From Candidatus Limnocylindria bacterium (GTDB taxonomy: Bacteria; Chloroflexota; Limnocylindria; QHBO01): a DNA stretch of 64,000 nt. The stretch spans positions 12,571 to 76,570 of the forward strand of contig DASVDT010000134.1 in NCBI GenBank assembly GCA_036380955.1. The letters are read 5' to 3'. Position 1 is the first letter of the stretch. The number at the start of each line of letters is the position of its first letter. Below, piece by piece: positions 40,109 through 59,124 of this stretch. The notes below the pieces were generated by a model. The model did not search any database and had not been told where the DNA came from. It was given only the letters and a program-made list of their open reading frames with translations. Made by a program: the position numbers and the translations under genes.

Positions 40109-40120
40109 ACCGTTGTCAGC

Positions 40121-40279: not shown

Positions 40280-40638
40280 GGTCCGGAGACGCCAAAGAGT
40301 CCACGGGACCGGCGATGTTGACGTGCTGATCCCGGGCTTGTTGGAGTTCAAGCACTGCGCGCGGGTTCAGCTCATGCGGTCAGCCGTCGGGCGAGACTCA
40401 CACACCATGAGGCCCGCGACGCGGGCCGGGTCCCGGGCGCCAAGCGAGCGCCGCCGGCGCATCGACTCCGAGATCTCTTCAGTCGTTGTCGCGATGGCGA
40501 TCATCACGGCCCTCATCGTGCCGCCGATCTTGCCGTTACTCGTGCGTCGCGCCGAAGACGGCGCCGCGGATGCTGCGTCCGAGGCCGGGCGGCCACCCGG
40601 CACCGAGGGAACGCCTGGGCGGCGAAACTCGGCGCCTG

Positions 40639-40983: not shown

Positions 40984-41369
40984 CAGATTGCCCTCCCAAG
41001 GGAGACGCCGGCGACAACGGCCACGACGCCGACGACGATCGAGCCCATGAGGTTGGCGGAGGCATAGAGCCACGCGCCGTCCTCGATCATGCGCCAGCTC
41101 TCCAGAGCCAGCGTCGAAAAGGTGGTGTACGCACCCAGGAAGCCGATCATCAGCGGGGCGCGCATCGAGGCCGGCAAGGCAGCGCGCTCAACGATCAACG
41201 CGAAGAGCAGACCCAGCAGCAGCGACCCAGATACATTGATGACGAACGTCCCCCACGGCAGTGCGCCACCGGTCCACGCGGTCATGCGCGCGTCGATGAA
41301 ATAGCGGGCGATCGCCCCGGCGAAGCCGCCGACCCCCACAAGCAGGACGGATATCACGGGCATCTCCAC
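40983..41369 (-). CDS. crcB: fluoride ion channel CrcB/Fluc
   Basis: 128 aa with 4 TM helices. GGFAGAIARY and GFLGAYTTFST motifs. Preceded by a fluoride riboswitch. Confidence 0.92.
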   Translation of the reverse strand: MEMPVISVLLVGVGGFAGAIARYFIDARMTAWTGGALPWGTFVINVSGSLLLGLLFALIVERAALPASMRAPLMIGFLGAYTTFSTLALESWRMIEDGAWLYASANLMGSIVVGVVAVVAGVSLGRAI

Positions 41370-41385
41370 ACGCGATCAATGCGAT

Positions 41386-41448
41386 CGGTAGGAGCCATCA
41401 GCCCTGGTGGGCGGTTGTTGGTGAGCCCCATCACCCGCTGGAAGCATG
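41386..41448 (-). promoter_or_regulatory. fluoride riboswitch (crcB RNA motif)
   Basis: The minus strand reads GCGGGUGAUGGGGCUCACCAACAACCGCCCACCAGGGCUGAUGGCUCCUACCG. This parallels the crcB motif as I recall it from the Thermotoga example: GGNGAUG...CC stem, AAC-CGCC, CCC/GGG hairpin, CUGAUGG and a pseudoknot-capable GGCUCC. Confidence 0.8.
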
Positions 41449-41467
41449 CTGGGAGGCGGCTCCGACG

Positions 41468-41759
41468 TCAATCCGGCGCAGCGCTGGTCCTGGGCGCGTA
41501 TCGCATCGAGAGCATCTCGAGGCTCGACCAGCCCAGCGTCTTCTGGACGTCATGCAGGTTCATCCCCAGCGCGCGCATGATCGAGGCGGCACTGTGCCGA
41601 AGGTCGTGCCACCTCAGCGCGGAAGGCCTTGCTCGACAGGCAGACGGTGTCAGCGCCGATCGACACTGGCCGCGCGCACTGGGTGGCCGTCTCCACCGCC
41701 ATGGCGTCGGGGCCGCGTGCATACGAGCCCGTAGTCCGTCCAGACCTCGCCCTGGTCAC
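41468..41759 (-). pseudogene. tyrosine recombinase (phage integrase) C-terminal remnant
   Basis: RWHDLRHSAASIMRALGMNLHDVQKTLGWSSLEMLSMRY matches the HxLRH ... LGH(W)-S ... Y catalytic box. Only about 480 nt are available before repeat B, and the upstream part is in another frame, so the gene is truncated and frameshifted. Confidence 0.6.
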
Positions 41760-41947
41760 CGGCGGCGGCGCTCCTCACCCGTGAGGAGCGCCTGCAAAGG
41801 CTCCTTTAGGTCCTGGCCGCGCCGCTGCCGCGCGCCACGCTCAGCGGCGCCAACGAATGGGCAATGCGGCGATGCTGCATGACAGCCAACGTGGCGACAC
41901 GGGACGCCTCTGCGTGTGCCCACAGAGGGGAAGTTGAGGGTGAAGGC

Positions 41948-42106
41948 TGGCTGCCCCGCGAGGATTCGAACCTCGGTTCACGGATCCAAAGTCCGCTCGC
42001 CGTAGGCTCAAATCGTGCTCAGATCGGGTGATCTGTGCGCTCCTGACAGCCGACGCTGACAGCGAACTGGCGCCATCCAGGCACCGAGGCGGAAGCATAG
42101 CGCAGC
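41948..42106. repeat. repeat copy B: perfect 50-nt copy of the tRNA-Gln 3-prime end plus about 110 nt of element-arm sequence (att site)
   Basis: 41948-41997 is identical to 55423-55472 by base-by-base comparison. 41998-42106 is homologous to 40171-40279. Confidence 0.85.
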
Positions 42107-42251: not shown

Positions 42252-43655
42252 TCAGGGCTGGAGGTCGGCGGCGCGTTGGGCTTGGCCCGGGGCGATGCCC
42301 GCGCGTCGAGCGAGGCGGGTGGCGGCCGTGCCGGACCTGTCCATGACGCCACCCTCGTCGGTGGACGTCAGGCGTCCGTCTCGCAGGAGGATTCGGCCGT
42401 CGACCATCGCGAACGACGCCTCACCTCCGGTGGCCGCATAAACCAATGACGAGATTGGATCGTGTACGGGAGCTGCAAACGGGTTCGCGAGCGAGAAGCC
42501 GGCCAAGTCGGCGCGTTTTCCTGGGGTGATCGACCCGATCTCGCCCTCCATGCCGATGGCCCGCGCGCCCTCGATCGTCGCCATCTGGAGCACGCCCAAG
42601 GCGCTGATGATCTCGGGGTCCTCGGTGGCGACCTTATGCAGCAGCGCGGTAGCCTTGAGGACTTCGAGCATGTTCTGGTTGTTGTTGCTCGCCGGGCCAT
42701 CGGTCGCCAGCCCGACAGTCATACCCGCTGCCAGCATTGCCGGCACTGGCGCGATACCCGCGGCCAAGTACATGTTGCTGATCGGGTTGTGGGACACCTT
42801 GACGTCGTGACGCGCGAGGACGTCGACCTCAGCGTCCTGCACCTTCGTGCAGTGAGCGGCGAGCAGATCAGGTCCGAGAAACCCGACGTCCGCAAGGAAG
42901 TCGACTTCGCCCTTGCCGTAGGTCGCCGCAGCATAGGACGTCTCGAACGTCGTCTCCGCCATGTGGTAGGTGATCAGGACCCCTCGTTCATCGGCGAACT
43001 CACGGGTCGCTCGCAGGGCTGGCTCATCCACCATCCACAGGAGGCAGGGCGCAACACCGATCTGGATTCGCGGATGACTTCGATGAAGTTCGAGCAGGCG
43101 CGCGCAGTCCTGCAACGCCCGGTCCGCGGACTCGATCAGTGCCGGTGGGAGGCCCTGCTCGGTTCCCTGGGTCACGAATCCCCGCGCCACGATCGCGCGC
43201 ACTCCCACTGAGTCGATGCCGGCGACGACCGCATCGGTAAGGTGCGGACGCGGATGGGCATACATGAAATCGACGATGGTCGTGCAGCCAGAACGAACAG
43301 CCTCGACCGCACCATGCGCAGCCGCCGCTTCACAGTCCTCGTCCAGCAGCGCGGCAGCCGCGGGACCGGTCATCTCAACCAGCCAACGGTTCAGGGGTCG
43401 ATCATCGCCCAGACCCTTGAGCAAGGTCTGGAACAGGTGGGTGTGGGTGTTTACGAGTCCGGGAACGAGGACCGCCTCGTTACCAATGTCAATGCGTGCA
43501 GCCGCGGGGTGAGCCGCGGCGAGGACGTCGGCCACTCCGACGTCGACGATGTCACGGTCGGTCACAAAGACGCCGCCACGCTCGATGATCCCGAAACGGG
43601 AGTCCATCGTCGCCACGGTCCCGGCGGTGAGGAGTAGGCCGTCAGCGTCTGCCAT
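42252..43655 (-). CDS. amidohydrolase, ATZ/TRZ-SsnA/deaminase-like (metal-dependent hydrolase superfamily)
   Basis: PGLVNTHTHLFQT (HxH), ITYHMAET, AAHCT and GLATDG motifs of the Amidohydro_1 deaminase/chlorohydrolase group. ATG 43655 shares 1 nt with the upstream stop. Confidence 0.85.
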   Translation of the reverse strand: MADADGLLLTAGTVATMDSRFGIIERGGVFVTDRDIVDVGVADVLAAAHPAAARIDIGNEAVLVPGLVNTHTHLFQTLLKGLGDDRPLNRWLVEMTGPAAAALLDEDCEAAAAHGAVEAVRSGCTTIVDFMYAHPRPHLTDAVVAGIDSVGVRAIVARGFVTQGTEQGLPPALIESADRALQDCARLLELHRSHPRIQIGVAPCLLWMVDEPALRATREFADERGVLITYHMAETTFETSYAAATYGKGEVDFLADVGFLGPDLLAAHCTKVQDAEVDVLARHDVKVSHNPISNMYLAAGIAPVPAMLAAGMTVGLATDGPASNNNQNMLEVLKATALLHKVATEDPEIISALGVLQMATIEGARAIGMEGEIGSITPGKRADLAGFSLANPFAAPVHDPISSLVYAATGGEASFAMVDGRILLRDGRLTSTDEGGVMDRSGTAATRLARRAGIAPGQAQRAADLQP

Positions 43656-44644
43656 CAGACCTGCAGCACTACCTTGCCCTGTGTCGTCCGGCCCTCGAGC
43701 GCTTGGTGTGCTTCTGAGATCTGCTCGAGCGGCATCAGATTTCCGATGGGGATCGTGAGACGCCCTGCCGACGCGGCCGCCACGACCTGTCGAACCCCGC
43801 GGCGCCATCGCGGACTGCCAGGCTTGGCATGCAGGACCTCAAACCCAGCCATCGATGTCGAGCGCTCATACAGCTTCTTGCGCACGGGGAAGTCTGGCTC
43901 GCCGGCAGCTTCGCCAATGTTGATGAGGCGGCCGAACGGCCGCAGCGCGTCGAAGGTCCGTGGGAGAATCTCGCCACCGAGCGAGTCGATGGCGAGGTCG
44001 ACGCCTCGCGAAGCAGTAGCGTCAAGCGCCGCTGCGACGAAGTCTTCCCTACTGCGATCCACGACGCGCTCCGCACCCAGTTGTCGTGGAAGATCCTGCT
44101 TGGCTGTACTACCAACCGTACCGATGACGCGCGCTCCGGCGAGAGCTGCGAGTTGGACTAACGCCAATCCGACGCTTCCTGCGGCCGCATGGACCAGGAC
44201 GACCTCTCCACGTCGGATGCCGTGAGCGGTATACAGCAGGTGGTACGCCGTCAGGGCGGCGAGCGGGAATGCCGCTGCGTCCGCGAGCGAAAAGCCTTCT
44301 GGAATCGGTACCAGGTACGACACCGGGACCGCCACGTACTCGGCGCAGCCACCGACGAGTCGCGGTCCGCACAGCGCGGCCGTCGGCTTGCCAATCAAAT
44401 CGCGCGACACACCCCCGCCGACGTCGACGATCGTGCCGCTCGCCTCAGCACCGAGGACGACTGGATAGCTGACCGGATCGGGGTAGATGCCCTGTCGCTT
44501 CTGGATGTCACTCCAGTTGGCTGCTGCAAAGGCCACGCGCAGGAGGACCTCGCCGCGCCCAGGAACCGGCCGGTCGACAGCCTGGAGCAGCGGTTCGCCG
44601 GTCGCAGACGGTCGCCCCACCACCACTGCGCGCATCAGCGTCAT
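43655..44644 (-). CDS. NADPH:quinone oxidoreductase-like medium-chain dehydrogenase/reductase
   Basis: MDR fold: GEVLLRV ... GAEASGTIVDVG ... Rossmann motif VLVHAAAGSVG. ATG 44644 lies 8 nt after the upstream stop. Confidence 0.85.
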   Translation of the reverse strand: MTLMRAVVVGRPSATGEPLLQAVDRPVPGRGEVLLRVAFAAANWSDIQKRQGIYPDPVSYPVVLGAEASGTIVDVGGGVSRDLIGKPTAALCGPRLVGGCAEYVAVPVSYLVPIPEGFSLADAAAFPLAALTAYHLLYTAHGIRRGEVVLVHAAAGSVGLALVQLAALAGARVIGTVGSTAKQDLPRQLGAERVVDRSREDFVAAALDATASRGVDLAIDSLGGEILPRTFDALRPFGRLINIGEAAGEPDFPVRKKLYERSTSMAGFEVLHAKPGSPRWRRGVRQVVAAASAGRLTIPIGNLMPLEQISEAHQALEGRTTQGKVVLQV

Positions 44645-44654
44645 CGGACCGTCG

Positions 44655-45701
44655 CTACTCGTCGACGATCGGCGTTGGATCATATCCGCGCCACCCATCA
44701 TTCTTCCGTAGAAACAGGCCGGCGAGGAATGTCAGCATCGCTGAGTTGAACGTTCGGGTCGTGATCTCCGCGACATCGCGGTATGGATCAAGCTCGACGA
44801 AGTCAATCGCGGCGACTCGCGGGTCTTGGCCGAGCATGAAGAGCGCCTCGAACAGATCGGTGGGGTGGATCCCGTCGGCGGTCGCTGCTGCCGTTCCCGG
44901 CGCATAGCCGACCTCCAGCACGTCGATGTCAACGGTGACGTAGATCGCGTCCACCTCGCGGCCAGCGACGTCCAGGGTTCGGCTCACGACATCGTCGATG
45001 CCGCCCCGGCGAATCTCTCGCGCTGTGATGATCGTTCCGCCCTTGCCCTCTACCCAGCGCTTGTAATAGCTGGCGTTCATGAAGCCGTGAATGCCGACCT
45101 GAACCAGGTTCGCACCTGAGACTCGCACGCCGGACTGCAGGATCCCGCGGATCGGTGTTCCGTTGGTGGGCCCGTGGTCCATGACGCGCACGTCGTTGTG
45201 CGCGTCGAAGTGGATCAAGCCAACCTGCTGATCGGGGTGAGCCTTGCAGTAGGCCCGGACGGCTGGCGCCGTGATCGCATGATCACCGCCGACGATCAGC
45301 GGAAAGAAATCCTCCGGCTGATTGAACAGCTCGATGAGCGACTGCTCGATGTTCTCTATGCCCTCGCGGAGATCGAGCACCGGCACTGCAACATCGCCGA
45401 TCTCGCGGACCTTCATCGAGGCGAGATCCACGTCGTAGTCAGGCGAGTACGTCGTGTTGATCGCCCACGCTTCCTTGATCGCGTTCGGAGCCGCGTATGC
45501 GCCATTTGCGAAGATGGACGTCTTGCTCGAGGGGATGTTGATGATGCCGACGTCGAGGGCAGACTCCCAATCCCAGGGCTCGATCCAGTTGTTGACTCGA
45601 AACTCGTGCGCGTCATTCCAATGCAGCCGCTTCCGCTTTTCGGGCAGCAGCAGGTGCGGAATGCCCCGCGGATTGAGCGGAAGGTCGTAGAAGTCACCCA
45701 T
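44655..45701 (-). CDS. arginase-family ureohydrolase paralogue 1 (formimidoylglutamase/agmatinase-like)
   Basis: Metal-ligand motifs GGDHAIT, HFDAHNDV and TVDIDVLEV..PGT. ATG 45701 overlaps the gntR stop by 8 nt. Confidence 0.85.
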   Translation of the reverse strand: MGDFYDLPLNPRGIPHLLLPEKRKRLHWNDAHEFRVNNWIEPWDWESALDVGIINIPSSKTSIFANGAYAAPNAIKEAWAINTTYSPDYDVDLASMKVREIGDVAVPVLDLREGIENIEQSLIELFNQPEDFFPLIVGGDHAITAPAVRAYCKAHPDQQVGLIHFDAHNDVRVMDHGPTNGTPIRGILQSGVRVSGANLVQVGIHGFMNASYYKRWVEGKGGTIITAREIRRGGIDDVVSRTLDVAGREVDAIYVTVDIDVLEVGYAPGTAAATADGIHPTDLFEALFMLGQDPRVAAIDFVELDPYRDVAEITTRTFNSAMLTFLAGLFLRKNDGWRGYDPTPIVDE

Positions 45702-46443
45702 GTCTGGCTCCTTGATCATTCTGTGTTGGGTCAGCGGAGTCGCTAGCCGTAAGGGATTGACCAGGCGCGCCTTGTGCGACCGCCAGTGCGGCTCCGCTGA
45801 GCATGGCGTTCGATCTCCTGAACAAGGCCCAGCACTCGTTGGCCGCTTCGTCAACGTCTCCTTCGACGATGCGCGCCACGAAGCGTTCGTGATCGGCGAG
45901 CAACGGACCGAAGCTGGCTCTTCCGGCGACCGTTTCGAGCCGTATCAAGGTGCGAAGCAGTCCAACTTGGGCTTCCCAAGCCTGGAGCAGCCGCTGATTG
46001 CCTGAGACGCGGCAGAGTTCCTCGTGGAGTGTCAGATCGGCCTCGATGAACTCGACCCGATGGCCGTCCGCTGCCGCCGTGCGCATACGGTCGAGTGCCC
46101 GGCCCAAGCGCTCGCGCGCCGCTGAGTCATCTGCCGCGATGACCAGTCTGGCCGCCCCGCTCTCCAGCGAGGCGCGGACTTGGTAGATCTCGTTGATGTC
46201 TTCGGCCTTGAGTTCAGCGACCGATACGCCCCTTGGTGCCTCGTCGTGCACGAGCCCTTCCGCGCGAAGGGTTGCCAGCGCTTCGCGCACTGGGCCGCGA
46301 CTGATCTGCAGCTGACGTGCGATATCAGCCTCGATGAGTCGCGTCCCGGGGCGGAGTGACCCATCCAGGATTTTCTCGCGCAGAAGTTCGGTCGCTGTCG
46401 ACGCCAAAGTCCGCGCCTCGAGAGGCTCCAAGCCGGGAATCAT
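45694..46443 (-). CDS. GntR/FadR-family transcriptional regulator (wHTH + FCD domain)
   Basis: N-terminal LRPGTRLIEADIARQLQISRGPVREALATLRAEGLV wHTH and an all-helical FCD-like C-terminal domain. First gene of the minus-strand operon. Confidence 0.9.
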   Translation of the reverse strand: MIPGLEPLEARTLASTATELLREKILDGSLRPGTRLIEADIARQLQISRGPVREALATLRAEGLVHDEAPRGVSVAELKAEDINEIYQVRASLESGAARLVIAADDSAARERLGRALDRMRTAAADGHRVEFIEADLTLHEELCRVSGNQRLLQAWEAQVGLLRTLIRLETVAGRASFGPLLADHERFVARIVEGDVDEAANECWALFRRSNAMLSGAALAVAQGAPGQSLTASDSADPTQNDQGARHG

Positions 46444-46460
46444 CAGAACGCGTCACCGAC

Positions 46461-46481
46461 TGTTGACTGTTGACTGTCAAC
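46461..46481. promoter_or_regulatory. putative GntR operator: TGTTGAC-TGTTGAC-TGTCAAC
   Basis: Three contiguous 7-nt half-sites. 46469-46481 is the perfect palindrome GTTGAC-T-GTCAAC. It overlaps TTGACT -35-like hexamers, with TATCCT at 46487-46492. Confidence 0.5.
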
Positions 46482-46523
46482 CATCCTATCCTCGCCTCCG
46501 GCTCTCGGTCAATGGTGCGGTGA

Positions 46524-48104
46524 ATGGCAGCTGAGACCCTCGAGAAGCAATCCGCCACTGGGTCAACGGGGTCGGAAGACCTGTTGCTCGAGATGCGGAA
46601 CATCACGAAGCGGTTTGGTCAACTCGTCGCCGACGACGACGTTACGTTCGGCGTGCGCCGTGGAGAGATCCACGCGCTATTGGGCGAGAACGGAGCCGGC
46701 AAGAGCACATTGATGAAGGTGCTCTACGGCTTGGTGGGGCCCGATGCCGGCGAGATCTGGATCGACGGTGTGATGGCATCTGTCAACTCGCCACACGACG
46801 CAGTCGAGCTGGGCATCGGTATGGTCCACCAGCGATTCATGCTCGTCCCCAATCTGTCGGCGGTCGAGAACGTGGTGCTCGGAATGCGTCAGGCACGCGC
46901 ACCTCTCTTGGACATCGGTGCCGCGCGGCGGCGCCTGGTTGACTTGGTCGAGGATTACCAGCTCTACATCGAGCCGGATGTGCCGGTCTGGCAGCTGCCC
47001 GTCGGTATGCAACAGCGCCTGGAAATCCTCAAGGCCCTGTTCCGAGGAGCGAAGCTCCTGGTCCTCGACGAGCCAACGGCGGTGTTGGCACCGTCCGAGG
47101 TTCAGCACCTGTTCCGCATTATGCGCACGCTCGTGACGGAAGGCCGCGGCATCGTATTCATCAGCCACAAGCTGAGCGAAGTGCGCGACATCAGCGACCG
47201 CATCACGGTGCTTCGAGGCGGCCGCGTCACCGGTACGCTACCCGTCGCGAAAGCGACGCCATCGCGTCTCTCAGAGATGATGCTCGGCCGGGAAGTCACG
47301 CTCGAGCGGCGATCACCGCCGGTGGCCGGCGGTGATCCGGTTCTCGAGGTCCAACGACTCGAGTGCCTCACGGATCGCGGCACTGCGGCGCTGCGGGGCA
47401 TTTCCTTGACGATCCGTGCGGGCGAGATCGTCGGCATCGCCGGAGTGGACGGCAACGGTCAACGCGAGCTGATCGAATGCATCGCCGGCTTGCGAGACGC
47501 GGTTTCGGGGAGCATCACAATCGACGGCCAGCAGCCGGGCGATATCCTTACGAGACCTGACCTGTTCGGGTTTATCCCCGAGGATCGGCACCGAGAGGGC
47601 TTGGTGGAGGACTTCTCCGTTGCGGAGAACATCGTCCTCAAGTCGTACTCGCGCGCGCCCTTTTCCAAGTGGGGCATCCTTCGCTGGTCGGCGATCAAGT
47701 CGCATGCCGCCGAGCAGATCGACCGCTACGGCATTCGAGCGGCGGGCCCATGGGCGCGCGCGCGATCCCTTTCAGGAGGAAACCAGCAGAAGGTCGTCAT
47801 CGCACGTGAGACCCAAGAGCAGCCACGCCTGCTCATCGCGGCTCAGCCGACCCGAGGACTCGATGTCGGGGCGGTAGAGAGTGTGCTCACGCTCCTTCTG
47901 CAGCAGCGCGATCGCGGAGCGGCGATTCTCTTCATTTCCACGGAGCTGCCAGAGCTGCTGGCGGTGAGCGACCGGATCGCCGTGCTCCACGGAGGCGAGG
48001 TCGTCGGCGAGGTGCCCCCAACGCCGGAGTACGTCGATCAGATCGGTCAGATGATGATGGGCCACCGTCCTGGCGGCGATGACCTCGCGGGAGCGACCGC
48101 GTGA
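46524..48104 (+). CDS. ABC transporter ATP-binding protein with duplicated ATPase domains (BMP/nucleoside-type importer)
   Basis: Two Walker A sites (GENGAGKST, GVDGNGQRE), two signature/Walker B sets (LVLDEPT, LIAAQPTRGLD), 526 aa. Confidence 0.93.
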   Translation: MAAETLEKQSATGSTGSEDLLLEMRNITKRFGQLVADDDVTFGVRRGEIHALLGENGAGKSTLMKVLYGLVGPDAGEIWIDGVMASVNSPHDAVELGIGMVHQRFMLVPNLSAVENVVLGMRQARAPLLDIGAARRRLVDLVEDYQLYIEPDVPVWQLPVGMQQRLEILKALFRGAKLLVLDEPTAVLAPSEVQHLFRIMRTLVTEGRGIVFISHKLSEVRDISDRITVLRGGRVTGTLPVAKATPSRLSEMMLGREVTLERRSPPVAGGDPVLEVQRLECLTDRGTAALRGISLTIRAGEIVGIAGVDGNGQRELIECIAGLRDAVSGSITIDGQQPGDILTRPDLFGFIPEDRHREGLVEDFSVAENIVLKSYSRAPFSKWGILRWSAIKSHAAEQIDRYGIRAAGPWARARSLSGGNQQKVVIARETQEQPRLLIAAQPTRGLDVGAVESVLTLLLQQRDRGAAILFISTELPELLAVSDRIAVLHGGEVVGEVPPTPEYVDQIGQMMMGHRPGGDDLAGATA

Positions 48105-49183
48105 CCGGTGTCGCGCGGCGAGTCTCGGTCCGTGTTCTGCCACCTCTGGGTGCAATCGCCGCCGCGCTGGCGGTCTCCGGGATTCTCATCGCACTCGCTG
48201 GTGTCAACCCGCTGGACGCGTATGCCGCGATGGTGCAGGGATCGGTCGGGAGCCTCAACTCGCTCGCGGTCACCGGCGTGCGGATGACGCCCATCCTTCT
48301 GACGGGTCTTTCCGTCGCCATCGGCTTTCGGGCCGGCCTGTTCAACATCGGCGGCGAGGGTCAGCTGTACGTCGGGGCCGCCGGGGCAGCCGCGGTTGCA
48401 CTGCTTCCCCTCAACGTGCCCGGTGTGATCCACATCTTCCTCGCGCTCGCGGCGGGAGCCGGTGGCGGTGCGCTTTGGGTGCTCGTGCCCGCGTACCTAC
48501 GGGCTTACCGCGGCGTGAGCGAGGTCGTGACCACCTTGATGCTCAACTTCGTCGGCATCATCTTGGTCAGCTACTTGGTGGATCCGATCCTCGGCCCGAT
48601 GGGCGAACATGGCGCGTCGTACGCCCAGTCGCTCCCCATTCAGGCGTCGGCCGAACTCCCCATCCTTCTCGAGCGTACGAGCCTGCACGCCGGCCTGTTG
48701 ATCGGCCTTGCCTTCGCCGTTGGCCTGTATCTGCTGATCCGCTACACAGGCTTCGGCTTCAGACTGCGGATGCTGGGGGCCAACCCGACAGCCGCCCGAT
48801 TTGCGGGGGTCAAGTCCGCGCGCGAGATGATGCTGATCATGCTGGCCAGTGGCGGGATCGCCGGACTGGCTGGCGCTGTCGAAGTCATGGGGCTGCGCCA
48901 TCGACTGTACGCCGACTTCTCTCCAGGCTTCGGTTACGACGGAATCGCGGTGGCCCTTCTGGCGGATGCACACCCCCTCGGCGTCGTGGCCGCTTCGGCC
49001 TTCTTCGGAGCGCTGCGGGCGGGATCCAGCCTAATGCAGCAGGTGACGCGAATCGAGACCTCGATCGTGCTGATCATCCAGGCGCTGACCATCCTGTTCG
49101 TCATAGCCGGCTTGTTCCGGGGACGCTTCCGACGCTTCCGGTTGCGGACGCCGGTGCGCGCTGCGGAGCCGACTGATGCTTGA
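48101..49183 (+). CDS. ABC transporter permease (BPD_transp_2 type)
   Basis: 360 aa, about 9-10 TM helices. 4-nt overlap with the ATPase gene. Confidence 0.9.
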   Translation: MTGVARRVSVRVLPPLGAIAAALAVSGILIALAGVNPLDAYAAMVQGSVGSLNSLAVTGVRMTPILLTGLSVAIGFRAGLFNIGGEGQLYVGAAGAAAVALLPLNVPGVIHIFLALAAGAGGGALWVLVPAYLRAYRGVSEVVTTLMLNFVGIILVSYLVDPILGPMGEHGASYAQSLPIQASAELPILLERTSLHAGLLIGLAFAVGLYLLIRYTGFGFRLRMLGANPTAARFAGVKSAREMMLIMLASGGIAGLAGAVEVMGLRHRLYADFSPGFGYDGIAVALLADAHPLGVVAASAFFGALRAGSSLMQQVTRIETSIVLIIQALTILFVIAGLFRGRFRRFRLRTPVRAAEPTDA

Positions 49184-50132
49184 TGCAGCCGCGATCACCG
49201 ACTGGGGTAGTGCAGCAATGCGGCTGACGGCGCCGCTCGCGATCACCGTGATCGGTGGCGTGTATGCCGAACGCAGTGGCGTGTTCAACATCGGCATGGA
49301 AGGCATGATGTTGGTTGGCGCCTTCACCGCGGTGAGCACAAGCTTCTACCTTGAGCCGATCATGCCTGCCGGCTTGGCGGTGATGATGGCGACGCTCGCG
49401 GCCATGCTCGCCGCAGCACTGGCGAGCTTGGTCCACGCGTACCTGACCATCAGCCGTGGGGCGAACCAGATCATTTCTGGCGTCGCGATCAACCTGATGG
49501 CATTGGGCCTGACGAATACGCTTCACCGTGCCGTGTTCGGCGCCACCGGTCGCCAACGCGTCGCCGGCTTTCCCTCGATCGAGCTGCCGGTTCTGGGTGA
49601 CGTGCCGATCGTCGGCGACGTGTTCTTCAACCAGTCACTGGCGATCTACCTCGTTTACATCCTTCCGCTTATCGCCCTGTTCGTCCTCTACCGAACGACC
49701 TGGGGCCTCAACATCCGCGCAGCCGGGGATGCACCGTCCGCGGTCGACACCGCCGGACTCTCAGTCTCCAAGATCCGTTACGCGACGGTCCTTTTCAGCG
49801 GCGCTATGGCAGGGCTCGGAGGGGCAGTCCTCGCTTTGGGCGCGGTCCGGTACTTCACGCCGGGCATGACGGCTGGCCGCGGGTTCATCGTGCTTGGCGC
49901 GATCATCGTGGGTCGCTGGAACCCACTTCTAGCGGTTGCGGCGTGCCTCCTGTTCGGTGCCGCCGATGCGTTCCAGCTGCGGGCGCAGGCGTTCGGCCTC
50001 GGCATTCCTCACCACTTCTTCGTGATGCTGCCCTACCTGCTCGCTACGGCGGCCGTTGCGGGCGTCATTGGTCGTGTCATGCCGCCCACGCAACTCGGGA
50101 TCAACTATCGCCGCGAGGATGCTGATGAGTGA
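49176..50132 (+). CDS. ABC transporter permease (second subunit)
   Basis: 318 aa polytopic membrane protein, paralogous in style to the preceding permease. 8-nt overlap. Confidence 0.9.
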   Translation: MLDAAAITDWGSAAMRLTAPLAITVIGGVYAERSGVFNIGMEGMMLVGAFTAVSTSFYLEPIMPAGLAVMMATLAAMLAAALASLVHAYLTISRGANQIISGVAINLMALGLTNTLHRAVFGATGRQRVAGFPSIELPVLGDVPIVGDVFFNQSLAIYLVYILPLIALFVLYRTTWGLNIRAAGDAPSAVDTAGLSVSKIRYATVLFSGAMAGLGGAVLALGAVRYFTPGMTAGRGFIVLGAIIVGRWNPLLAVAACLLFGAADAFQLRAQAFGLGIPHHFFVMLPYLLATAAVAGVIGRVMPPTQLGINYRREDADE

Positions 50133-50931
50133 GACTGTGAAGAACCAGCCAAGAGTTCGAATGGCGGAACTGACGCGTCCCGAGTTTGAGGCGCGTATCA
50201 GGACGAGCGTGATCATCCTGCCGGTCGGCTCGACGGAGCAACATGGACCCCACCTCCCGCTCGGCGCTGACGCGCTGCAGGTGGATGAGATCGCGGTTCG
50301 GGTTGCGCGTGAAGCGAACGCGATCGTCGCGCCCACGCTTCCATACGGCTATCGGTCCGGAGCGCGAAGCGGCGGCGGAGAGATCTTCTCGGGCACGACG
50401 AGCCTCAGTGGTGAGGCCTTGACACTGACGGTCCGCGACATTCTTCATGCGCTCATCCGCCATGGTGCTCGGCAGATCGTGGTCCTCGATGGGCACTACG
50501 AGAACAACATGTTCTTGGAAGAGGCGATTCATCTCGCGCTGGCAGCTTCCTCTGGCGTTGACGTGTCCATTCTCAAGCTGCTGTGGGTGGACGGGATCGA
50601 CGCAGGTACGCTCGAGCGGGCATGGCCAGACGGATTCCCCGGCTGGGCGCTCGAGCACGCCGCACACCTCGAGACGTCGACGATCGCCGCCATCCGTCCT
50701 GACCTCCTTCACCCAGAGGAGGTCTATGCCAGCGCCCCGGCGGACCTTCCTCCCTACGACGTCTATCCCCAACCGGACGACTTCGTTCCGACATCGGGCG
50801 TGCTTTCAGATCCCAGTAGGGGCAACGCGGACTCAGGCAACGCGCTGATCGATAGCGCGGTAAAGGGGCTCGTTCAGATCATCCGCGACCGGTTCCAACC
50901 ACCAGTAGTAGCAGTCAGGAGAGAGGAATGA
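50125..50931 (+). CDS. creatininase-family amidohydrolase
   Basis: GSTEQHGPHLPLGAD, LDGHYEN and EHAAHLETS match the creatininase metal-ligand pattern. ATG 50125 overlaps the permease stop by 8 nt; ATG 50161 is an alternative. Confidence 0.88.
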   Translation: MSETVKNQPRVRMAELTRPEFEARIRTSVIILPVGSTEQHGPHLPLGADALQVDEIAVRVAREANAIVAPTLPYGYRSGARSGGGEIFSGTTSLSGEALTLTVRDILHALIRHGARQIVVLDGHYENNMFLEEAIHLALAASSGVDVSILKLLWVDGIDAGTLERAWPDGFPGWALEHAAHLETSTIAAIRPDLLHPEEVYASAPADLPPYDVYPQPDDFVPTSGVLSDPSRGNADSGNALIDSAVKGLVQIIRDRFQPPVVAVRREE

Positions 50932-51935
50932 CCACAGTCCAAGTACCTTCGCGGCACCGATTGTCGTCGCTCGGCGCGGGCCTCGCGACACTCACGCTCG
51001 TTCTCGCTGCATGCGGCCAAGGGGGCACACCCAGCGCCTCGGCCGACGGAGCAAGCAGCGGCGCCTCCTCCGATCGCAGCGCCGCCGTGCTCTTCCCCGG
51101 CTTGGTCGACGATCAGTCATGGAATCAGGCTGGCTACGAAGGGCTCACGCAGGCGGAAGACGAGGGGGTGGAGATCGCCTACACGGAGAACGCGAGCCAG
51201 GATCAGCAGGTGGAGCTGTTCCGCAACTACGCCCAGCAGGGCGTCGATGTCGTCATCGGTCACGGCGGCGAGTACATGGATTCGGCCCTTCAGGTTGCCG
51301 AGGAGTTCCCTGATACGCAGTTTGTCGTGACGAACGGCGACAAGAGCGCGGCGAACGTCACGTCCCTGGCACTGAGCTATGGGGACATGGGCTACCTAGC
51401 TGGCGTGCTGGCAGCGAGCATGACCGAGTCGGGCCACATCGGCATCGTGGTCGGTGAGACCATTCCTATTGCCGAAGATGCGATCCGCGCCTTCAAGGCC
51501 GGCGCCGCACGCGTGAATCCGGATGTGGAGGTCTCCGAAAGCGTCACCGGCGACTGGGCTGACGTCGCCAAGTCGCGCGAGGCGGCCTTGGCCCAGATCG
51601 CGGATGGCGTCGATGTGCTGTGGCACCTGCTTGATGCTGCCGACGCCGGCGTCATGAGTGCCGCTGAAGACGAGGGCATATACGTCATCGGTCTGTACGC
51701 TGACCAGAGCGCATTGGCGCCGACGGCTCACATCGGAGCGTCACTTTCCGATGCATCCGCCGTCGTATTCGGAGCCGCCAGCGGCGAGATTGAACTGGAC
51801 GGTCAGGTCCACAACGAAGGTGTTGCAGAGGGCGTGGTGAGCTTCGGCGCCTACGCGGACGTCGTTCCGGAGGAAGCGCGCCAGGCCGTCACCGAGGCGG
51901 AGGAAGGCCTCCGCACCGGCGAGGCCACCTACTAG
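50928..51935 (+). CDS. BMP-family ABC substrate-binding lipoprotein
   Basis: Signal peptide with lipobox LVLAAC, then a PnrA/Med-like periplasmic binding fold (VLFPGLVDDQSWNQAGYEG...). ATGA overlap with the creatininase gene. Confidence 0.9.
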   Translation: MTTVQVPSRHRLSSLGAGLATLTLVLAACGQGGTPSASADGASSGASSDRSAAVLFPGLVDDQSWNQAGYEGLTQAEDEGVEIAYTENASQDQQVELFRNYAQQGVDVVIGHGGEYMDSALQVAEEFPDTQFVVTNGDKSAANVTSLALSYGDMGYLAGVLAASMTESGHIGIVVGETIPIAEDAIRAFKAGAARVNPDVEVSESVTGDWADVAKSREAALAQIADGVDVLWHLLDAADAGVMSAAEDEGIYVIGLYADQSALAPTAHIGASLSDASAVVFGAASGEIELDGQVHNEGVAEGVVSFGAYADVVPEEARQAVTEAEEGLRTGEATY

Positions 51936-51947
51936 CCTCCACTTGAG

Positions 51948-51976
51948 CCGGGGGACCGATCCGTTCGGTCCCCCGG
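51948..51976 (+). other. intercistronic 12-bp stem-loop after the binding-protein gene
   Basis: CCGGGGGACCGA-tccgt-TCGGTCCCCCGG, a perfect 12-bp stem with no U-tract, 13 nt after the stop. Confidence 0.5.
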
Positions 51977-52000
51977 CTGGGCTACTCCTTGGAGGACTCA

Positions 52001-53005
52001 ATGTCTCACCCACTTCCGAATCAGCGGGCGTTCGGCTTCGCCGGCATACCGAGCTTCCTTCGGGTGCCAGTGACCGCCGACTTGGCGGCTCTAGATGCCG
52101 ACGTCGCCGTCATTGGGGTGCCCAGTGACGTGGGGTCGCCCTTCTTGCCAGGCTCGCGCATGGGGCCACGCGGCATCCGCGAACAATCCTTGCGCTTCGG
52201 CAGCGAGGGGTACTACGACCATCGTGATCGGCGCACCTACCTGGAGGATGTGCTGCGCGAGCGGCGTATCACCGACGTTGGCGACGTCGACGCGACGCCT
52301 TCGGACACTGAAGTGACGTTCGAGCGTACGACAGAGGCGCTGGGCGGCATCCTGAACAGCGGAGCCCTTCCGGTGGTGCTGGGTGGCGACCACGCCATCA
52401 CCTACCCCGTTGTGCGGGCGTACGAGTCGCCTGTTCACGTGGTCCACTTCGACGCGCACATCGACTACTCACCGTTCCAGCACGGCTTCATGAACACGAA
52501 CATGCACGCCTTCCGCCACATCCGGAAGATGCCGCACGTCCAGAGCCTCACGCAGGTCGGGATCCGGAGCCTTCGCAACGGGCGCGATGCGATGGAAGAC
52601 GCGCTGAACGATGGAAACCGGATCGTGGACATGGAGGAGTTCCGAGATCTCGCGGCGCCCGGGCTGGCCGAGATACTGCCCGCTGACGCGCCAACATACG
52701 TCAGCATCGACATCGATGTGCTCGACATGTCACTCGTGCCAGGCTGCGTCTCGCTCGAGCCGAACGGCATGGCGTACGCCGAGTTGCGTGACTCGCTGGT
52801 CGCACTGAGCGAGCACGCCAACATCGTTGGTTTCGATCTGGTTGAGGTGAACCCGGTCCTCGACGTCGGTACCAGCATGACCTCATACATCGCGGCGCAC
52901 ACCATTCTCGAGTTCCTGGGTCACATCTGCGCTCAACCCCGTTGGACGGAAAGACGGCAGGAGAGAGCGGAGCAGCGACGTCTGATGGAGGAATCGAAGC
53001 GGTGA
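52001..53005 (+). CDS. arginase-family ureohydrolase paralogue 2 (divergent substrate loop)
   Basis: GGDHAIT, HFDAHIDY and SIDIDVLD are conserved. The loop after the third motif reads PGCVSLEPNG instead of the canonical PGTGTPExGG. ATG 52001 is preceded by GGAGGA; the track uses TTG 51989. Confidence 0.85.
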   Translation: MSHPLPNQRAFGFAGIPSFLRVPVTADLAALDADVAVIGVPSDVGSPFLPGSRMGPRGIREQSLRFGSEGYYDHRDRRTYLEDVLRERRITDVGDVDATPSDTEVTFERTTEALGGILNSGALPVVLGGDHAITYPVVRAYESPVHVVHFDAHIDYSPFQHGFMNTNMHAFRHIRKMPHVQSLTQVGIRSLRNGRDAMEDALNDGNRIVDMEEFRDLAAPGLAEILPADAPTYVSIDIDVLDMSLVPGCVSLEPNGMAYAELRDSLVALSEHANIVGFDLVEVNPVLDVGTSMTSYIAAHTILEFLGHICAQPRWTERRQERAEQRRLMEESKR

Positions 53006-53883
53006 TGCCAACCATCGACACACACGTCCATCTGTATCGGACCGCCGAAGAGGGCGAACGCGCGAAATCCGGCTACGAGATCTGGGAGTACGGTGAGGGC
53101 GGAGGCCCGCAGTTCGCCGACTGGTCGGGCGACCCCGACGACGCCGTCCGGGCGATGGAAGTGGCGGGCGTGGACTATGTCGTCGTGACGAACATGCTCG
53201 ATGACACTGCCTCATACGCGGATCCGGGCGCCGAACTCGTGGCATACAACGAGTGGCTGTGCGGGCTGGCCGAACGTGACCGGCGCTTCGTCGCGTGTCT
53301 GGGAGTTGATCCTGGCTGCCTCTCGGTTCCGGACCTGGTATCTCACCTGCGGGCGATGGCGCCGCGCATCCCGGCGGGCATCAAGCTCCATCCGCCGGTG
53401 CACCACATCGACATGTCGGACGAGTCGTTCTGGCCCGTTCTGGAAACGTGCCAAGAACTGGGGCTTCGAGTCGTTTCGCATTCGGGTCCAAGCCGCGACG
53501 GAAAGCAATACGGTGAGCCGAATGCGTTTCGCCCGATACTCGAGGCGTTTCCGCGCCTTCGCTTGGTGCTCGCTCACCTTGGCGGGGCTGCCTGGCAGCA
53601 GGTACCCCAGCTGGCCGACGACTACCCCCAGGTGTATTTCGACTGCTGCGAGATCATCGAGTGGTTGGGAGCGACGCGGGCACCCTCGCAGGAGCAGTTC
53701 GTCGACCTTGTCCGACACATCGGCAGCGATCGGGTGATGATGGGCTCCGACTTCCCCTGGTACGACATGGCCCGCACGGTCGAACTGGTGCGAGGGCTGC
53801 CGCTGACGGACGACGAGCGCGGTGCGGTGCTCGGCGGGAACGCCATGCGCTTCTTCGGCCTACCAGAACCGGCGTCAGCGTGA
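53005..53883 (+). CDS. amidohydrolase-2 family (TIM-barrel metal hydrolase/decarboxylase-like)
   Basis: MPTIDTHVHLY (HxH) N-terminus, VLAHLGG, and a C-terminal MMGSDFPW with conserved Asp. The ATG shares 1 nt with the upstream TGA. Confidence 0.85.
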   Translation: MPTIDTHVHLYRTAEEGERAKSGYEIWEYGEGGGPQFADWSGDPDDAVRAMEVAGVDYVVVTNMLDDTASYADPGAELVAYNEWLCGLAERDRRFVACLGVDPGCLSVPDLVSHLRAMAPRIPAGIKLHPPVHHIDMSDESFWPVLETCQELGLRVVSHSGPSRDGKQYGEPNAFRPILEAFPRLRLVLAHLGGAAWQQVPQLADDYPQVYFDCCEIIEWLGATRAPSQEQFVDLVRHIGSDRVMMGSDFPWYDMARTVELVRGLPLTDDERGAVLGGNAMRFFGLPEPASA

Positions 53884-53895
53884 CGGAGCAGTCTG

Positions 53896-54903
53896 ATGCT
53901 TCGCCGGCTGTCCCCATGGCGGCGGCTCGACGAGCGTACGACACTTGAGGTCGGAGTGACCCGCAAGATCCTGGGACAGACCGATGCTACCCGCGTGCCA
54001 CGCTACGCTGGCATTGGGACGTTTGCCCGGCTCCCCACGCTCGACCAGGTCGAGGCGTACGACGTGGCGGTCGTCGGCGTGCCGTTTGATGCCGGAGTCA
54101 CCTACCGACCGGGCGCTCGGTTCGGTCCAGGAGCGATCCGCCAGGCGAGTCGCCTGTTGCGCCCATACAACCCTGCGCTGCAGGTCAGACCCTTCGACGA
54201 CCAGCAGGTTGTCGACGCGGGTGACATCGCAGCTAGCCCGTTCTCGATTGAGGACGCGCTGGGTGCTATTGAAGAGCGTCTCGCCGCCATCATCGCGACG
54301 GGAGCGCGGTACGTCCTGCTAGGTGGAGACCACACGATCGCGTTGCCGTCGTTGCGCGCTTTGCATCGACGACACGGACCTATTGCCCTTGTGCACTTCG
54401 ATGCGCACCTGGATACCTGGGACACCTACTTTGGCGCCCCGTACACGCATGGGACACCCTTCCGACGTGCCTTTGAAGAAGGGCTGCTCGATCCGAACGC
54501 CGCGGTCCACGTCGGGATCCGCGGTTCGCTCTACGCGGAGCAGGACTTGGGCGACGATGCGCGAATGGGCTTCAGCATCATCACGACGTCCGACGTCGAG
54601 ACGATCGGCGTGGGCCAGGTGTCAGAGAGGATTTTCGCGCGAGCCGCGCACCGACCTGTCTACGTTTCGGTGGACGTGGATGTCCTCGATCCAGCTCATG
54701 CACCGGGTACTGGAACGCCCGAGGCGGGCGGGCTGACCTCCCGAGAGTTGTTGACGATACTGCGGTCGATCGCGCGGGTCGAAATGGTCGGCGCCGACAT
54801 TGTGGAGGTCTCACCGCAGTACGATCACGCAGAGATCACCGCGGTCGCCGCCGCCAACGTGGTCTATGAGTTGTTATCCGCTATGGCGCTGAAAGCCCGG
54901 TGA
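53896..54903 (+). CDS. speB: agmatinase/guanidino-acid hydrolase (canonical arginase-family ureohydrolase, paralogue 3)
   Basis: [31 protein letters not shown] and [23 protein letters not shown] are the canonical SpeB/GbuA-type motif set. The symbol denotes family only. Confidence 0.88.
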
Positions 54904-54912
54904 AAGGGTGAC

Positions 54913-55248
54913 GTGAGACTTCGGCTATCCCGCCTGTTCGCGCCGCGCCCTGCTGGCCGGTGGGTAAGGCTCGACGGCGGCTTGAGGTTACCGGAGTCGC
55001 CTGGCGTGGTGATGCTCGCCGCCCCGACGGTGATCTGGGTAAGCTCCACGGACAACATCGCGCACGCCGTCCGCGCCGTCATCCGCGAGGCTCACCCCTT
55101 GCAGGTCGGGACTGCGCGTTCAGCCGCCGGGTACGTTTGGTGGCACCTCTGCAGTCGATCGACAGCAGATCGCTGGGCCGTATCCCTGCGGCGGAGGCTC
55201 TGCCCCAACCCCTCTGCCGACACCGTGGCGCTCGAGCATCTCCACTAG
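54913..55248 (+). CDS. hypothetical protein (last ORF of the island operon)
   Basis: 111 codons from GTG, 9 nt after the speB-like stop. Third positions are mostly G/C in this frame. No family recognised. Confidence 0.3.
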   Translation: MRLRLSRLFAPRPAGRWVRLDGGLRLPESPGVVMLAAPTVIWVSSTDNIAHAVRAVIREAHPLQVGTARSAAGYVWWHLCSRSTADRWAVSLRRRLCPNPSADTVALEHLH

Positions 55249-55422: not shown

Positions 55423-55496
55423 TGGCTGCCCCGCGAGGATTCGAACCTCGGTTCACGGATCCAAAGTCCGCTGTCCTACCACTAGACGACGGGGCA
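55423..55496 (-). tRNA. tRNA-Gln (anticodon TTG); integration target
   Basis: Acceptor TGCCCCG/CGGGGCA (U1-A72 as in bacterial tRNA-Gln), anticodon loop CTTTGGA, TTCGAAT T-loop and encoded CCA. Confidence 0.92.
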
Positions 55497-55553
55497 CCGC
55501 TCGTGCCTCACGCTAGCAGGTCAGATTTCGTGCAACCAGCCCAGACATGAAAA

Positions 55554-55629
55554 TGGAGCGGAAGACGGGACTCGAACCCGCGACCCTCACCTTGGCAAGG
55601 TGATGCTCTACCAACTGAGCCACTTCCGC
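55554..55629 (-). tRNA. tRNA-Gly (anticodon GCC)
   Basis: Acceptor GCGGAAG/CTTCCGC, anticodon loop TTGCCAA, T-arm GCGGG-TTCGAGT-CCCGT and CCA. Confidence 0.92.
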
Positions 55630-55660
55630 CCGCTTGCTGCTGCGAATGATACCGCGTCGG

Positions 55661-55736
55661 TGGTGCCGAGGGTCAGATTCGAACTGACGACACCCGCCTC
55701 TTCAGGGCGGTGCTCTACCAACTGAGCTACCTCGGC
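55661..55736 (-). tRNA. tRNA-Phe (anticodon GAA)
   Basis: Acceptor GCCGAGG/CCTCGGC, D-loop AGCTCAGTTGGTAGAGC, anticodon loop CTGAAGA and CCA. Confidence 0.92.
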
Positions 55737-59111: not shown

Positions 59112-59124
59112 CCGAGGGTGAAGC

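Follow-up and report, generated by a model that had tools for sequence, protein, structure and literature searches.

What compound would a bacterium import and take apart with a creatininase-family enzyme, three arginase-fold hydrolases, and two further amidohydrolases, all encoded side by side? The question is raised by a gene cluster at positions 42252–55248 of a 64,000-nucleotide stretch of contig DASVDT010000134.1 from a Candidatus Limnocylindria bacterium (this whole stretch is called the window below), where it is the cargo of a 13.5-kb genomic island. A sequence-only reading of the window had suggested that the cluster breaks down either a cyclic guanidino compound resembling creatinine or glycocyamidine, or a purine-derived one, and these remain the two best candidates. 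On balance we favor the view that the cluster is a mobile nitrogen-scavenging module, which would import and hydrolytically dismantle a small planar N-heterocycle containing a cyclic acyl-guanidine or acyl-amidine; judging from the gene content, its products would be urea, formamide, ammonia, CO2, and probably glycine. All of the enzyme families are known, and the architecture is that of an ordinary catabolic operon pair. As had been suspected, the combination does not appear to be a described pathway: a literature search found no published description of the module, or of any operon or cluster that unites a creatininase with an arginase-fold enzyme (ureohydrolase).

Eleven genes form a core. 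In map order these are a COG0402 amidohydrolase, a medium-chain dehydrogenase/reductase (MDR), a ureohydrolase that we call ureo1, and a gntR gene on the minus strand, followed on the plus strand by an ATP-binding cassette (ABC) ATPase, two permeases, the creatininase, a BMP-type substrate-binding protein (SBP), a second ureohydrolase (ureo2), and an Amidohydro_2 protein. This order is kept in more than 15 Limnocylindria or Chloroflexota metagenome loci, at 50–90% amino acid identity and between differing flanks, and in GTDB Chloroflexota genomes at 56–84% identity. The cluster is complete in six metagenome contigs (L059, L063, L064, L067, L069, and L075), five shorter contigs preserve the same order up to the contig end, and an identical BMP gene in the same gene order is found on contigs of several public metagenome assemblies. 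The module turns up widely in metagenomes of soils and aquifers. At the other Limnocylindria loci the GC content of the cluster equals that of its flanks, the neighborhoods are unrelated, and a tRNA gene lies nearby in one locus only; the module therefore moves as a unit.

We assigned the proteins of the window to families with Pfam and NCBIfam models and found solved relatives through matches to the Protein Data Bank (PDB). All 13 open reading frames (ORFs) listed in the earlier reading lie at the coordinates given there, and 12 fall into named families, so that the families and positions of the named genes stand. Several of the proposed ORF starts were too long, and the TTG start assigned to the creatininase was wrong.

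The genes are tightly packed into two divergent operons. Within both, adjacent genes overlap by 1–8 nucleotides (nt) or lie 10–65 nt apart, and no promoter-like or terminator-like signal above chance was found inside either operon. The two sigma-70-like sites detected between 41.5 and 56.5 kb are both located, in divergent orientation, in the 80-bp spacer between gntR and the ABC ATPase gene (46444–46523). The spacer carries a perfect palindrome, GTTGACtGTCAAC (46469–46481), within the repeats CTGTTGA-CTGTTGA-CTGTCAAC, which the two promoter-like sites overlap, and the motif TTGACTGT(C/T)GACAG...TAT..GT...GTCAAC is kept in six other loci. The gntR gene (45694–46443, minus strand; PF00392 and PF07729, a GntR/FCD regulator) is the first gene of the minus-strand operon and keeps its position in all full copies of the cluster. 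This conserved spacer architecture supports joint control of both operons by the GntR protein and agrees with the earlier picture of two operons sharing a control region beside a GntR gene.

The gene that gives the cluster its character encodes a binuclear-metal cyclic amidohydrolase of the creatininase family (50125–50931, plus strand; PF02633, TIGR04448), the candidate for the ring-opening step. It scores 274 bits against TIGR04448 (equivalog cutoff 235), 190 bits against the Pfam model (cutoff 31), and 203 bits against the creatininase of Pseudomonas putida. The metal ligands of the P. putida enzyme (E34, H36, D45, H120, and E122) and its substrate-binding or catalytic residues (S78, Y121, W154, W174, and H178) are all identical here; the E-x-H...H-x-E ligands recognized before are thus present, as E-Q-H and H-Y-E. 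A neighbor-joining tree divides creatininases into three clades, and the type of partner gene tracks the clade: one, which includes the validated enzyme, is linked to M24 metallopeptidases, one to a third ureohydrolase type (ureo3), and one to ureo2. The island enzyme belongs to the ureo2-linked clade, apart from the experimentally validated M24-linked enzymes. Arginase-linked creatininases show changes near the pocket, N82H83 being replaced by E/Q-I, D155 by V/A, and GG by AA/AH. No M24 creatinase gene is present in the island or the window. A reading of the creatininase and MDR pair as IolN/IolM of inositol metabolism was rejected (65 and 89 bits, compared with 274 for creatininase).

Three genes of the window encode arginase-fold proteins (PF00491; 198, 214, and 329 bits, the highest being ureo3). 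All three were said to keep the full set of manganese-ligand motifs. GGDH and DAHxD are indeed found in all three and DxDxxD in ureo2 and ureo3, whereas ureo1 has DIDVLE, in which both ligand aspartates are kept and the third aspartate of the motif is a glutamate. Because the three proteins are only 28–32% identical to one another, they represent three old subfamilies, and the description of three paralogous ureohydrolases in one unit was an overstatement, the more so as ureo3 is an accessory gene.

No other protein of the cluster is as well conserved as the HutG-like ureo1 (44655–45701, minus strand, with an alternative start at 45719), which keeps 80–90% identity. Its best NCBIfam model is hutG (TIGR01227; 171 bits, under the cutoff of 229) and its best PDB match is a formimidoylglutamase (3m1r); no hutH, hutU, or hutI gene lies near it. 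Members of the ureo1 family, at 74–78% identity, occur in a second conserved operon with the order NCS1 permease, DUF1028, ureo1, and alpha/beta hydrolase, and in nine loci a gene for an FmdA-type formamidase lies downstream of the ureo1-family operon. Since the family adjoins formamidase, release of formamide is likely, and ureo1 most likely hydrolyzes an N-formimidoyl compound, freeing formamide rather than urea; the expectation that the ureohydrolases release urea would not extend to it. The analogy is with histidine utilization, in which an imidazolone is opened to an N-formimidoyl amino acid, from which arginase-fold HutG frees formamide (HutI, HutG, and HutF being the enzymes concerned). 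The island differs in that ureo1 falls under the HutG cutoff, HutH, HutU, and HutI are lacking, and a creatininase-fold enzyme would open the ring instead of HutI.

The second ureo1 operon, seen in loci L060, L080, L084, L086, L088, L094 (for example, L094:2252–3262), L097, L104, and L112, is an undescribed catabolic module of its own; in four ureo1-operon loci a proline-racemase-family gene takes the place of the formamidase. In a further locus, L047 (1–20999), a 70% identical ureo1 homologue is accompanied by an NCS1 permease, DUF1028, two amidases, two AMDase-family genes, a histidine/phenylalanine ammonia-lyase-family gene, RidA, a xanthine-dehydrogenase-like molybdoenzyme, and three genes of the TPP-enzyme, NAD_binding_2, and AP_endonuc_2 families that we read as Gcl-, GlxR-, and Hyi-like, the whole having the look of an N-heterocycle locus.

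The partner of the creatininase gene is ureo2 (52001–53005, plus strand). Its best PDB match is 1wog, its nearest relatives are a Deinococcus "agmatinase" and proclavaminate amidinohydrolase (PAH), and, like ureo1, it scores under the agmatinase cutoffs of TIGR01230 and NF002564 (144 bits for ureo2, 131 for ureo1). Relatives with 38–40% identity directly adjoin creatininase genes in Bacillota, Armatimonadota, Ardenticatenaceae, and Acidobacteriota; by its family and placement ureo2 would free urea from a ring-opened guanidino acid. The third protein, ureo3 (53896–54903, plus strand), is of the guanidino-acid hydrolase or agmatinase type. It passes both TIGR01230 (235 versus 174) and NF002564 (318 versus 302), and its best solved relatives are PAH, GpuA, and GbuA (260–275 bits), not SpeB. 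Most of the Chloroflexota copies lack it, and only the closest relatives of the window, such as L059, have it; ureo3 is an accessory addition to the core of 11 genes.

The island ureohydrolases share the arginase fold and complete metal-ligand set with GbuA, GpuA, PAH, the nickel-dependent GdmH, and metformin hydrolase, the last of which demonstrates that enzymes of this fold can expel secondary amines. They differ from this group in that ureo1 and ureo2 are distant from it (50–135 bits) and the island lacks accessory genes for nickel insertion. Assignment to the heteromeric nickel ureohydrolases of the metformin-hydrolase type was likewise rejected, given scores of 50–95 bits, genes that are not adjacent, and the lack of nickel-insertion genes.

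Uptake would be the task of an ABC importer composed of an ATPase with two fused ABC domains (46524–48104; two stretches matching PF00005), two BPD_transp_2 permeases (48101–49183, assigned from its translation and from the gene call and Pfam match on an identical contig, and 49176–50132, PF02653), and a BMP/PnrA-family lipoprotein with the lipobox LAAC (50928–51935; PF02608), all on the plus strand. Relatives of the SBP in the PDB are Med, Lbp, 3s99, and AtzT; the nearest with defined ligands bind free purine bases (AtzT also ammeline) between two aromatic residues, and both stacking aromatics of AtzT are kept (W65 and a tryptophan aligned to W194). The earlier appeal to nucleosides as the usual cargo of BMP transporters is therefore a weak lead, since these relatives bind free bases and the stacking residues alone are kept.

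Three further conserved enzymes accompany the creatininase and ureohydrolases. The COG0402 protein (42252–43655, minus strand), a TRZ/ATZ-type, 8-oxoguanine-deaminase-like amidohydrolase, matches PF01979 with 209 bits and has the HxH, HxxE (HMAE), histidine, and aspartate signatures. Its best NCBIfam models are 5′-deoxyadenosine deaminase, N-ethylammeline chlorohydrolase, and 8-oxoguanine deaminase, and it remains below the cutoff in all 27 specific models (at best 334 versus 522); its best PDB matches are 3hpa and 7ww2, and its closest relatives are 8-oxoguanine deaminase and enzymes of the AtzB type. We take it to be a putative deaminase that acts on a cyclic amidine or guanidine. The Amidohydro_2 protein (53005–53883, plus strand; PF04909, 106 bits), whose start overlaps the ureo2 stop, is a TIM-barrel metalloenzyme with invariant H7, H9, H129, H159, H191, and D249. 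A profile search matched only the ACMSD, LigW, gamma-resorcylate, and IDCase decarboxylases and LigY, at E values of about 1e-7 and over partial lengths, and returned no lactonase; we infer that the protein is a non-oxidative decarboxylase. Finally, the MDR protein (43655–44644, minus strand; Pfam ADH_N/ADH_zinc_N) is an NAD(P)H-dependent reductase of the PIG3 or quinone-oxidoreductase type (TIGR02824, 207 bits, under the cutoff of 297).

Does the association of these families extend beyond Chloroflexota? A creatininase gene lies directly beside an arginase-fold gene in Chloroflexota, Armatimonadota, Bacillota, Acidobacteriota, and many metagenome-assembled Alphaproteobacteria, and such loci carry a nucleobase-type transporter (BMP-ABC, NCS1, or SBP_bac_8) and usually a deaminase of the COG0402, CodA, or CDA type. 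The pairing of creatininase with an arginase-fold gene was seen in five phyla besides Chloroflexota, and this recurrence across six phyla backs a functional link among creatininase, arginase-fold enzymes, COG0402 deaminase, and a nucleobase-type transporter. A cluster from Armatimonadota contains a BMP-ABC importer and orthologues of the COG0402 deaminase (49%) and of ureo3 (52%), with an F420-dependent LLM reductase in place of the MDR. An Oceanobacillus cluster holds NCS1, a CodA-type deaminase that scores above its cutoff, and an Asp/Glu-racemase-family gene. In Ardenticatenaceae the creatininase/arginase-fold pair adjoins isochorismatase-like hydrolases that are weak relatives of RutB and BiuH. 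The partner is a different one in cultured Paracoccus, Mesorhizobium, Brucella, and Azoarcus, where the creatininase is found with an M24 metallopeptidase of the creatinase family.

An operon of a Bacillota metagenome-assembled genome (MAG) from an anaerobic digester (L008:1959–12290) consists of genes for BMP, ABC ATPase, two permeases, serine hydroxymethyltransferase (SHMT), an arginase-fold protein, and creatininase, followed by a class-I/II aminotransferase-fold gene and an NAD-epimerase-fold gene. Judged by family, these last two may be Kbl-like and Tdh-like, in which case they would suggest glycine as the product. The operon ties the creatininase/arginase-fold pair to the metabolism of glycine, serine, and threonine.

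Other loci vary the theme. In four MAG loci titled Rhizobiaceae or Rhodospirillaceae (L010, L011, L014, and L017; for example, L010:8591–17415) the creatininase stands among four or five Amidohydro_1/3 genes together with AtzD/TrzD (cyanuric acid hydrolase or barbiturase), an amidase, and a CDA-type deaminase; to judge by these families, they look like triazine-like or barbiturate-like nitrogen-mining clusters. In L020 the creatininase is flanked by amidohydrolases, and AtzD/TrzD was not detected nearby. A rearranged locus, L096 (511–13312), has ureo1-, ureo2-, and ureo3-like genes, an Amidohydro_2 protein 38% identical to that of the window, and an NCS1 permease, with no creatininase; it adjoins genes of the glyoxylate-assimilation type and also carries a xylose-isomerase-like TIM barrel (PF01261, read as Hyi-like), an NAD_binding_2 protein (read as GlxR-like), a class-III aminotransferase, and a 508-amino-acid protein with no Pfam match.

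How might these enzymes work together? We favor complete hydrolytic dismantling of a ring containing both types of N-C-N unit because the conserved core supplies an importer, a lactam-opening enzyme, enzymes that free urea and formamide, a deaminase, a decarboxylase-like protein, and a reductase. In the pathway that we envisage, the GntR/FCD protein would act as a repressor bound to the palindrome between the operons, and the substrate or an intermediate would release both. The BMP-type importer would take up the planar N-heterocycle with its cyclic acyl-guanidine or acyl-amidine, and the creatininase-type enzyme would open the lactam bond beside the amidine carbon. The arginase-fold enzymes would then cut off the N-C-N units, ureo2 (and ureo3, if present) freeing urea from guanidino intermediates and ureo1 freeing formamide from a formimidoyl intermediate. 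The COG0402 enzyme would remove an amino group as ammonia and the ACMSD-like Amidohydro_2 protein a carboxyl group as CO2, so that a small amino acid, probably glycine, would remain.

As to the identity of the substrate, our single best guess, offered tentatively, is guanine or a close purine. Guanine is the common metabolite that combines a lactam with carbons of the guanidine, formamidine, and carboxyl-forming kinds, and we favor it because this makeup matches the enzyme set and the division between the upper and lower operons. In this scheme, opening of the N1-C6 bond of guanine would give 4-guanidinoimidazole-5-carboxylate, which ureo2 would convert to urea and 4-aminoimidazole-5-carboxylate. 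The Amidohydro_2 protein would remove CO2 to give 4-aminoimidazole, from which the COG0402 deaminase would release NH3, leaving imidazol-4-one (that is, creatinine minus its amino and methyl groups). The creatininase would open imidazol-4-one to N-formiminoglycine, and ureo1 would split the latter into glycine and formamide.

The precedent is the clostridial pathway of hydrolytic purine fermentation from the 1950s (the Rabinowitz pathway), in which xanthine is converted via 4-ureido-5-imidazolecarboxylate, 4-amino-5-imidazolecarboxylate, 4-aminoimidazole, and 4-imidazolone to formiminoglycine. The same order of reaction types, running from lactam opening through loss of the N-C-N unit, decarboxylation, and deamination to imidazolone opening, with glycine as product, can be mapped onto the families of the island and onto its division into two operons, a mapping that is purely inferential. 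The scheme differs from the clostridial pathway in starting from guanine, with a guanidino intermediate that yields urea, rather than from xanthine, with a ureido intermediate, and in ending with hydrolysis to formamide rather than with transfer of the formimino group to tetrahydrofolate, in a host that is most likely aerobic. The genes of the clostridial pathway from xanthine to formiminoglycine were unidentified as of the 2012 genome paper on C. acidurici (PMC3519856), and in a 2025 preprint it still figures as a distinct route used by obligate purinolytic bacteria. We think it rather unlikely that the whole route runs as written, from guanine to urea, CO2, NH3, formamide, and glycine by hydrolysis with no need for oxygen or molybdenum. 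If it does, the cluster would provide sequences for several orphan activities, namely purine lactam opening, 4-amino-5-imidazolecarboxylate decarboxylase, aminoimidazolase (EC 3.5.4.8), imidazolonase, and formiminoglycine hydrolase, and creatininase-fold and arginase-fold enzymes would act on purine fragments in abundant uncultured Chloroflexota.

Several points weigh against this interpretation. The scheme gives the MDR reductase no role, and it calls for two ring openings with one obvious ring-opening enzyme at hand, a creatininase that keeps a pocket built for a five-membered ring. The polar contacts of AtzT to guanine (S97, E165, N218, and N220) are replaced in the SBP by G, I, L, and D. 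No formamidase or urease gene is present in the island or the window. Relatives of ureo2 with 62–66% identity stand alone in marine genomes, and its specificity may therefore be broad. Minimal clusters, consisting of transporter, creatininase, and arginase-fold genes only, fit a two-step route from creatinine or glycocyamidine better than a purine.

That two-step route is the foremost alternative, possible though in our estimation improbable: a creatinine or glycocyamidine utilization island, in which the creatininase would form creatine or guanidinoacetate and ureo2, ureo3, or both would stand in for the M24 creatinase, yielding urea and sarcosine or glycine. The BMP-ABC importer would bring in creatinine or glycocyamidine, the COG0402 protein would be a creatinine deaminase on a side branch, and the other enzymes would serve related guanidino compounds. 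Such a route would be a variant of creatinine degradation I, in which CrnA, an M24 creatinase, and sarcosine oxidase act in turn and which is carried on plasmids of Paracoccus, Mesorhizobium, Brucella anthropi, and Azoarcus. The likeness is considerable. The two systems share the creatininase family with its metal ligands and every creatinine-contact residue, the island enzyme passing the equivalog cutoff, and they share the logic of ring opening followed by release of urea. In the canonical loci the M24 creatinase gene sits exactly where the arginase-fold gene sits here, and these loci have a dedicated transporter (sometimes likewise a polyamine-type ABC transporter or NCS1 permease) and often a cytosine/creatinine-type deaminase. 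In addition, GpuA and GbuA, with which ureo3 has most in common, are guanidino-acid hydrolases, and the Bacillota operon with SHMT would fit conversion of guanidinoacetate to glycine. What this alternative does not explain is the remainder of the core. It leaves four core genes, those for the Amidohydro_2, MDR, ureo1, and COG0402 proteins, without a role, and creatinine chemistry gives no formamide, whereas the ureo1 family is linked to formamidase. Neither a sarcosine oxidase nor a sarcosine dehydrogenase is encoded in the island or the window, and the arginase-linked creatininases form separate clades with systematic changes near the pocket. Moreover, we know of no arginase-fold enzyme shown to hydrolyze creatine. 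Relative to the canonical system, the island lacks the M24 and sarcosine-oxidizing enzymes, has arginase-fold enzymes in the place of the M24 creatinase, and adds four conserved enzymes and a BMP-type importer.

A second alternative retains the logic of the N-heterocycle module and changes the ring. The substrate would be another cyclic acyl-guanidine, such as ammeline or ammelide, isocytosine or other 2-aminopyrimidinones, a pterin fragment, guanidinohydantoin or iminoallantoin, or a hydroimidazolone; in the pyrimidinone version the reductase would saturate the C=C bond before or after ring opening to give 3-guanidinopropionate for the GpuA-like ureo3. This reading, which we hold to be decidedly improbable, accounts for the reductase, MDR or F420-LLM, as a conserved component. 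The deaminase has its highest scores against enzymes for ammeline, atrazine, and 8-oxoguanine, and AtzT-like SBPs bind ammeline (at 0.36 µM); more generally, the SBP is related to AtzT and the COG0402 protein to AtzA/B of the s-triazine set (AtzT, AtzA/B/C, TriA, and AtzD). The alphaproteobacterial MAG loci, several of them titled uncultured Rhizobiaceae, in which creatininase is surrounded by amidohydrolases, AtzD/TrzD, and amidase also speak for it, as do the isochorismatase-like hydrolases beside the pair in Ardenticatenaceae and the racemase-family gene of Oceanobacillus, which suggests a chiral C5 center. The island itself, however, contains no AtzD/TrzD, AtzE, AtzF, amidase, or allophanate-type gene, and the polar ligand contacts of AtzT are not kept. 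Neither triazine nor isocytosine chemistry has a step for a formamide-freeing enzyme, and compounds that are anthropogenic or of uncertain abundance fit poorly with a module widespread in soil and aquifer metagenomes.

Last, it is most improbable that the genes represent no single pathway and are independent hydrolases (for example, an agmatinase for polyamine synthesis, with a nucleoside salvage transporter) travelling together on an island, as might be supposed from ureo3 passing the agmatinase cutoffs, ureo2 relatives standing alone elsewhere, and ureo1 relatives occurring in a different type of operon, for the 11-gene order, translational coupling, and shared control region persist in many loci whose flanks are unrelated, parts of the set are found together in other phyla, and the three ureohydrolase types and Amidohydro_2 co-occur even in the rearranged locus L096.

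Limnocylindria (CSP1-4) are abundant, uncultured bacteria of soils, aquifers, and lakes. If a mobile and conserved set of 11 genes does remove all of the nitrogen from a small N-heterocycle, it would add a new route to those known for the recycling of nitrogen in the environment. In the large creatininase-fold clade that partners arginase-fold enzymes rather than M24 proteins, either creatinase has been replaced by a non-orthologous enzyme or the substrate is of a new class. The cluster also offers candidate genes for orphan activities of hydrolytic purine and imidazolone breakdown, and a widespread family of HutG-like enzymes, brought to notice by ureo1, probably makes formamide outside histidine catabolism.

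In the window the module lies at the 3′ end of a minus-strand tRNA-Gln(UUG) gene (55423–55496; found with ARAGORN and Rfam), whose 3′ 50 nt (55423–55472) constitute the proximal att-like repeat and right border of the island. An exact copy of these 50 nt at 41948–41997, in the same orientation, recovered by a repeat search and a three-copy alignment, is the distal repeat and left border. Between the repeats GC is 64.6%, compared with about 70% outside, and GC at third codon positions (GC3) is about 0.78 for island genes and about 0.90 outside. The att-like repeats and the drop in GC and GC3 uphold the earlier classification of the cluster as island cargo. No integrase or recombinase gene, or remnant of one, was found in the island or at either end, where all ORFs are accounted for. 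The window as a whole has a GC content of about 70%, and its flanks hold the core genes ffh, ftsY, smc, rnc, plsX, recG, and ileS. Because the LemA protein encoded just to the right of the cluster is at least 90% identical to Candidatus Limnocylindria proteins, the host is an uncultured member of the Chloroflexota of class Limnocylindria. An actinobacterial host with a cluster obtained from Chloroflexota was rejected on this ground; the island moved within the Limnocylindria lineage.

Two ORFs of the island call for caution in annotation. The 111-amino-acid small ORF at 54913–55248 (plus strand), counted earlier as a cluster gene, is probably not a gene: it is arginine-rich, lies among many overlapping small ORFs, matches no Pfam or NCBIfam family, and has a 38% match at one locus alone. 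A 365-amino-acid ATG ORF over permease 1 in another frame (48079–49176, plus strand) is arginine/proline-rich, has no Pfam match, and is a spurious frame, a high-GC artifact that could mislead annotation. Elsewhere in the window, four long ORFs with coding-like GC3 (21449–24715, plus; 29925–31022, minus; 31027–32700, minus; and 37902–39128, plus) have no Pfam match at E ≤ 1e-6; one of them, of 1088 amino acids, has a GC of 0.90 at first codon positions and overlaps long opposite-strand ORFs, so that its frame is uncertain.

A second element of 1.8 kb (40171–41932) lies in tandem with the catabolic island. It contains a fluoride riboswitch (41382–41444, minus strand), followed by crcB (about 40982–41356) and, upstream of 40982, a DUF190 gene, and it is bounded by a degenerate third copy of the tRNA-Gln fragment (40106–40170, 77% identity). 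The two elements have a 100-nt arm in common (40179–40279 in the smaller and 42005–42106 in the island). Eight tRNA genes (Leu, Cys, Gln, Gly, Phe, Val, Leu, and Leu), all on the minus strand, lie near the island within 20 kb, at 39228–39311, 40034–40108, 55423–55736, and 58618–59211, and this tRNA-rich hotspot has captured at least two elements.

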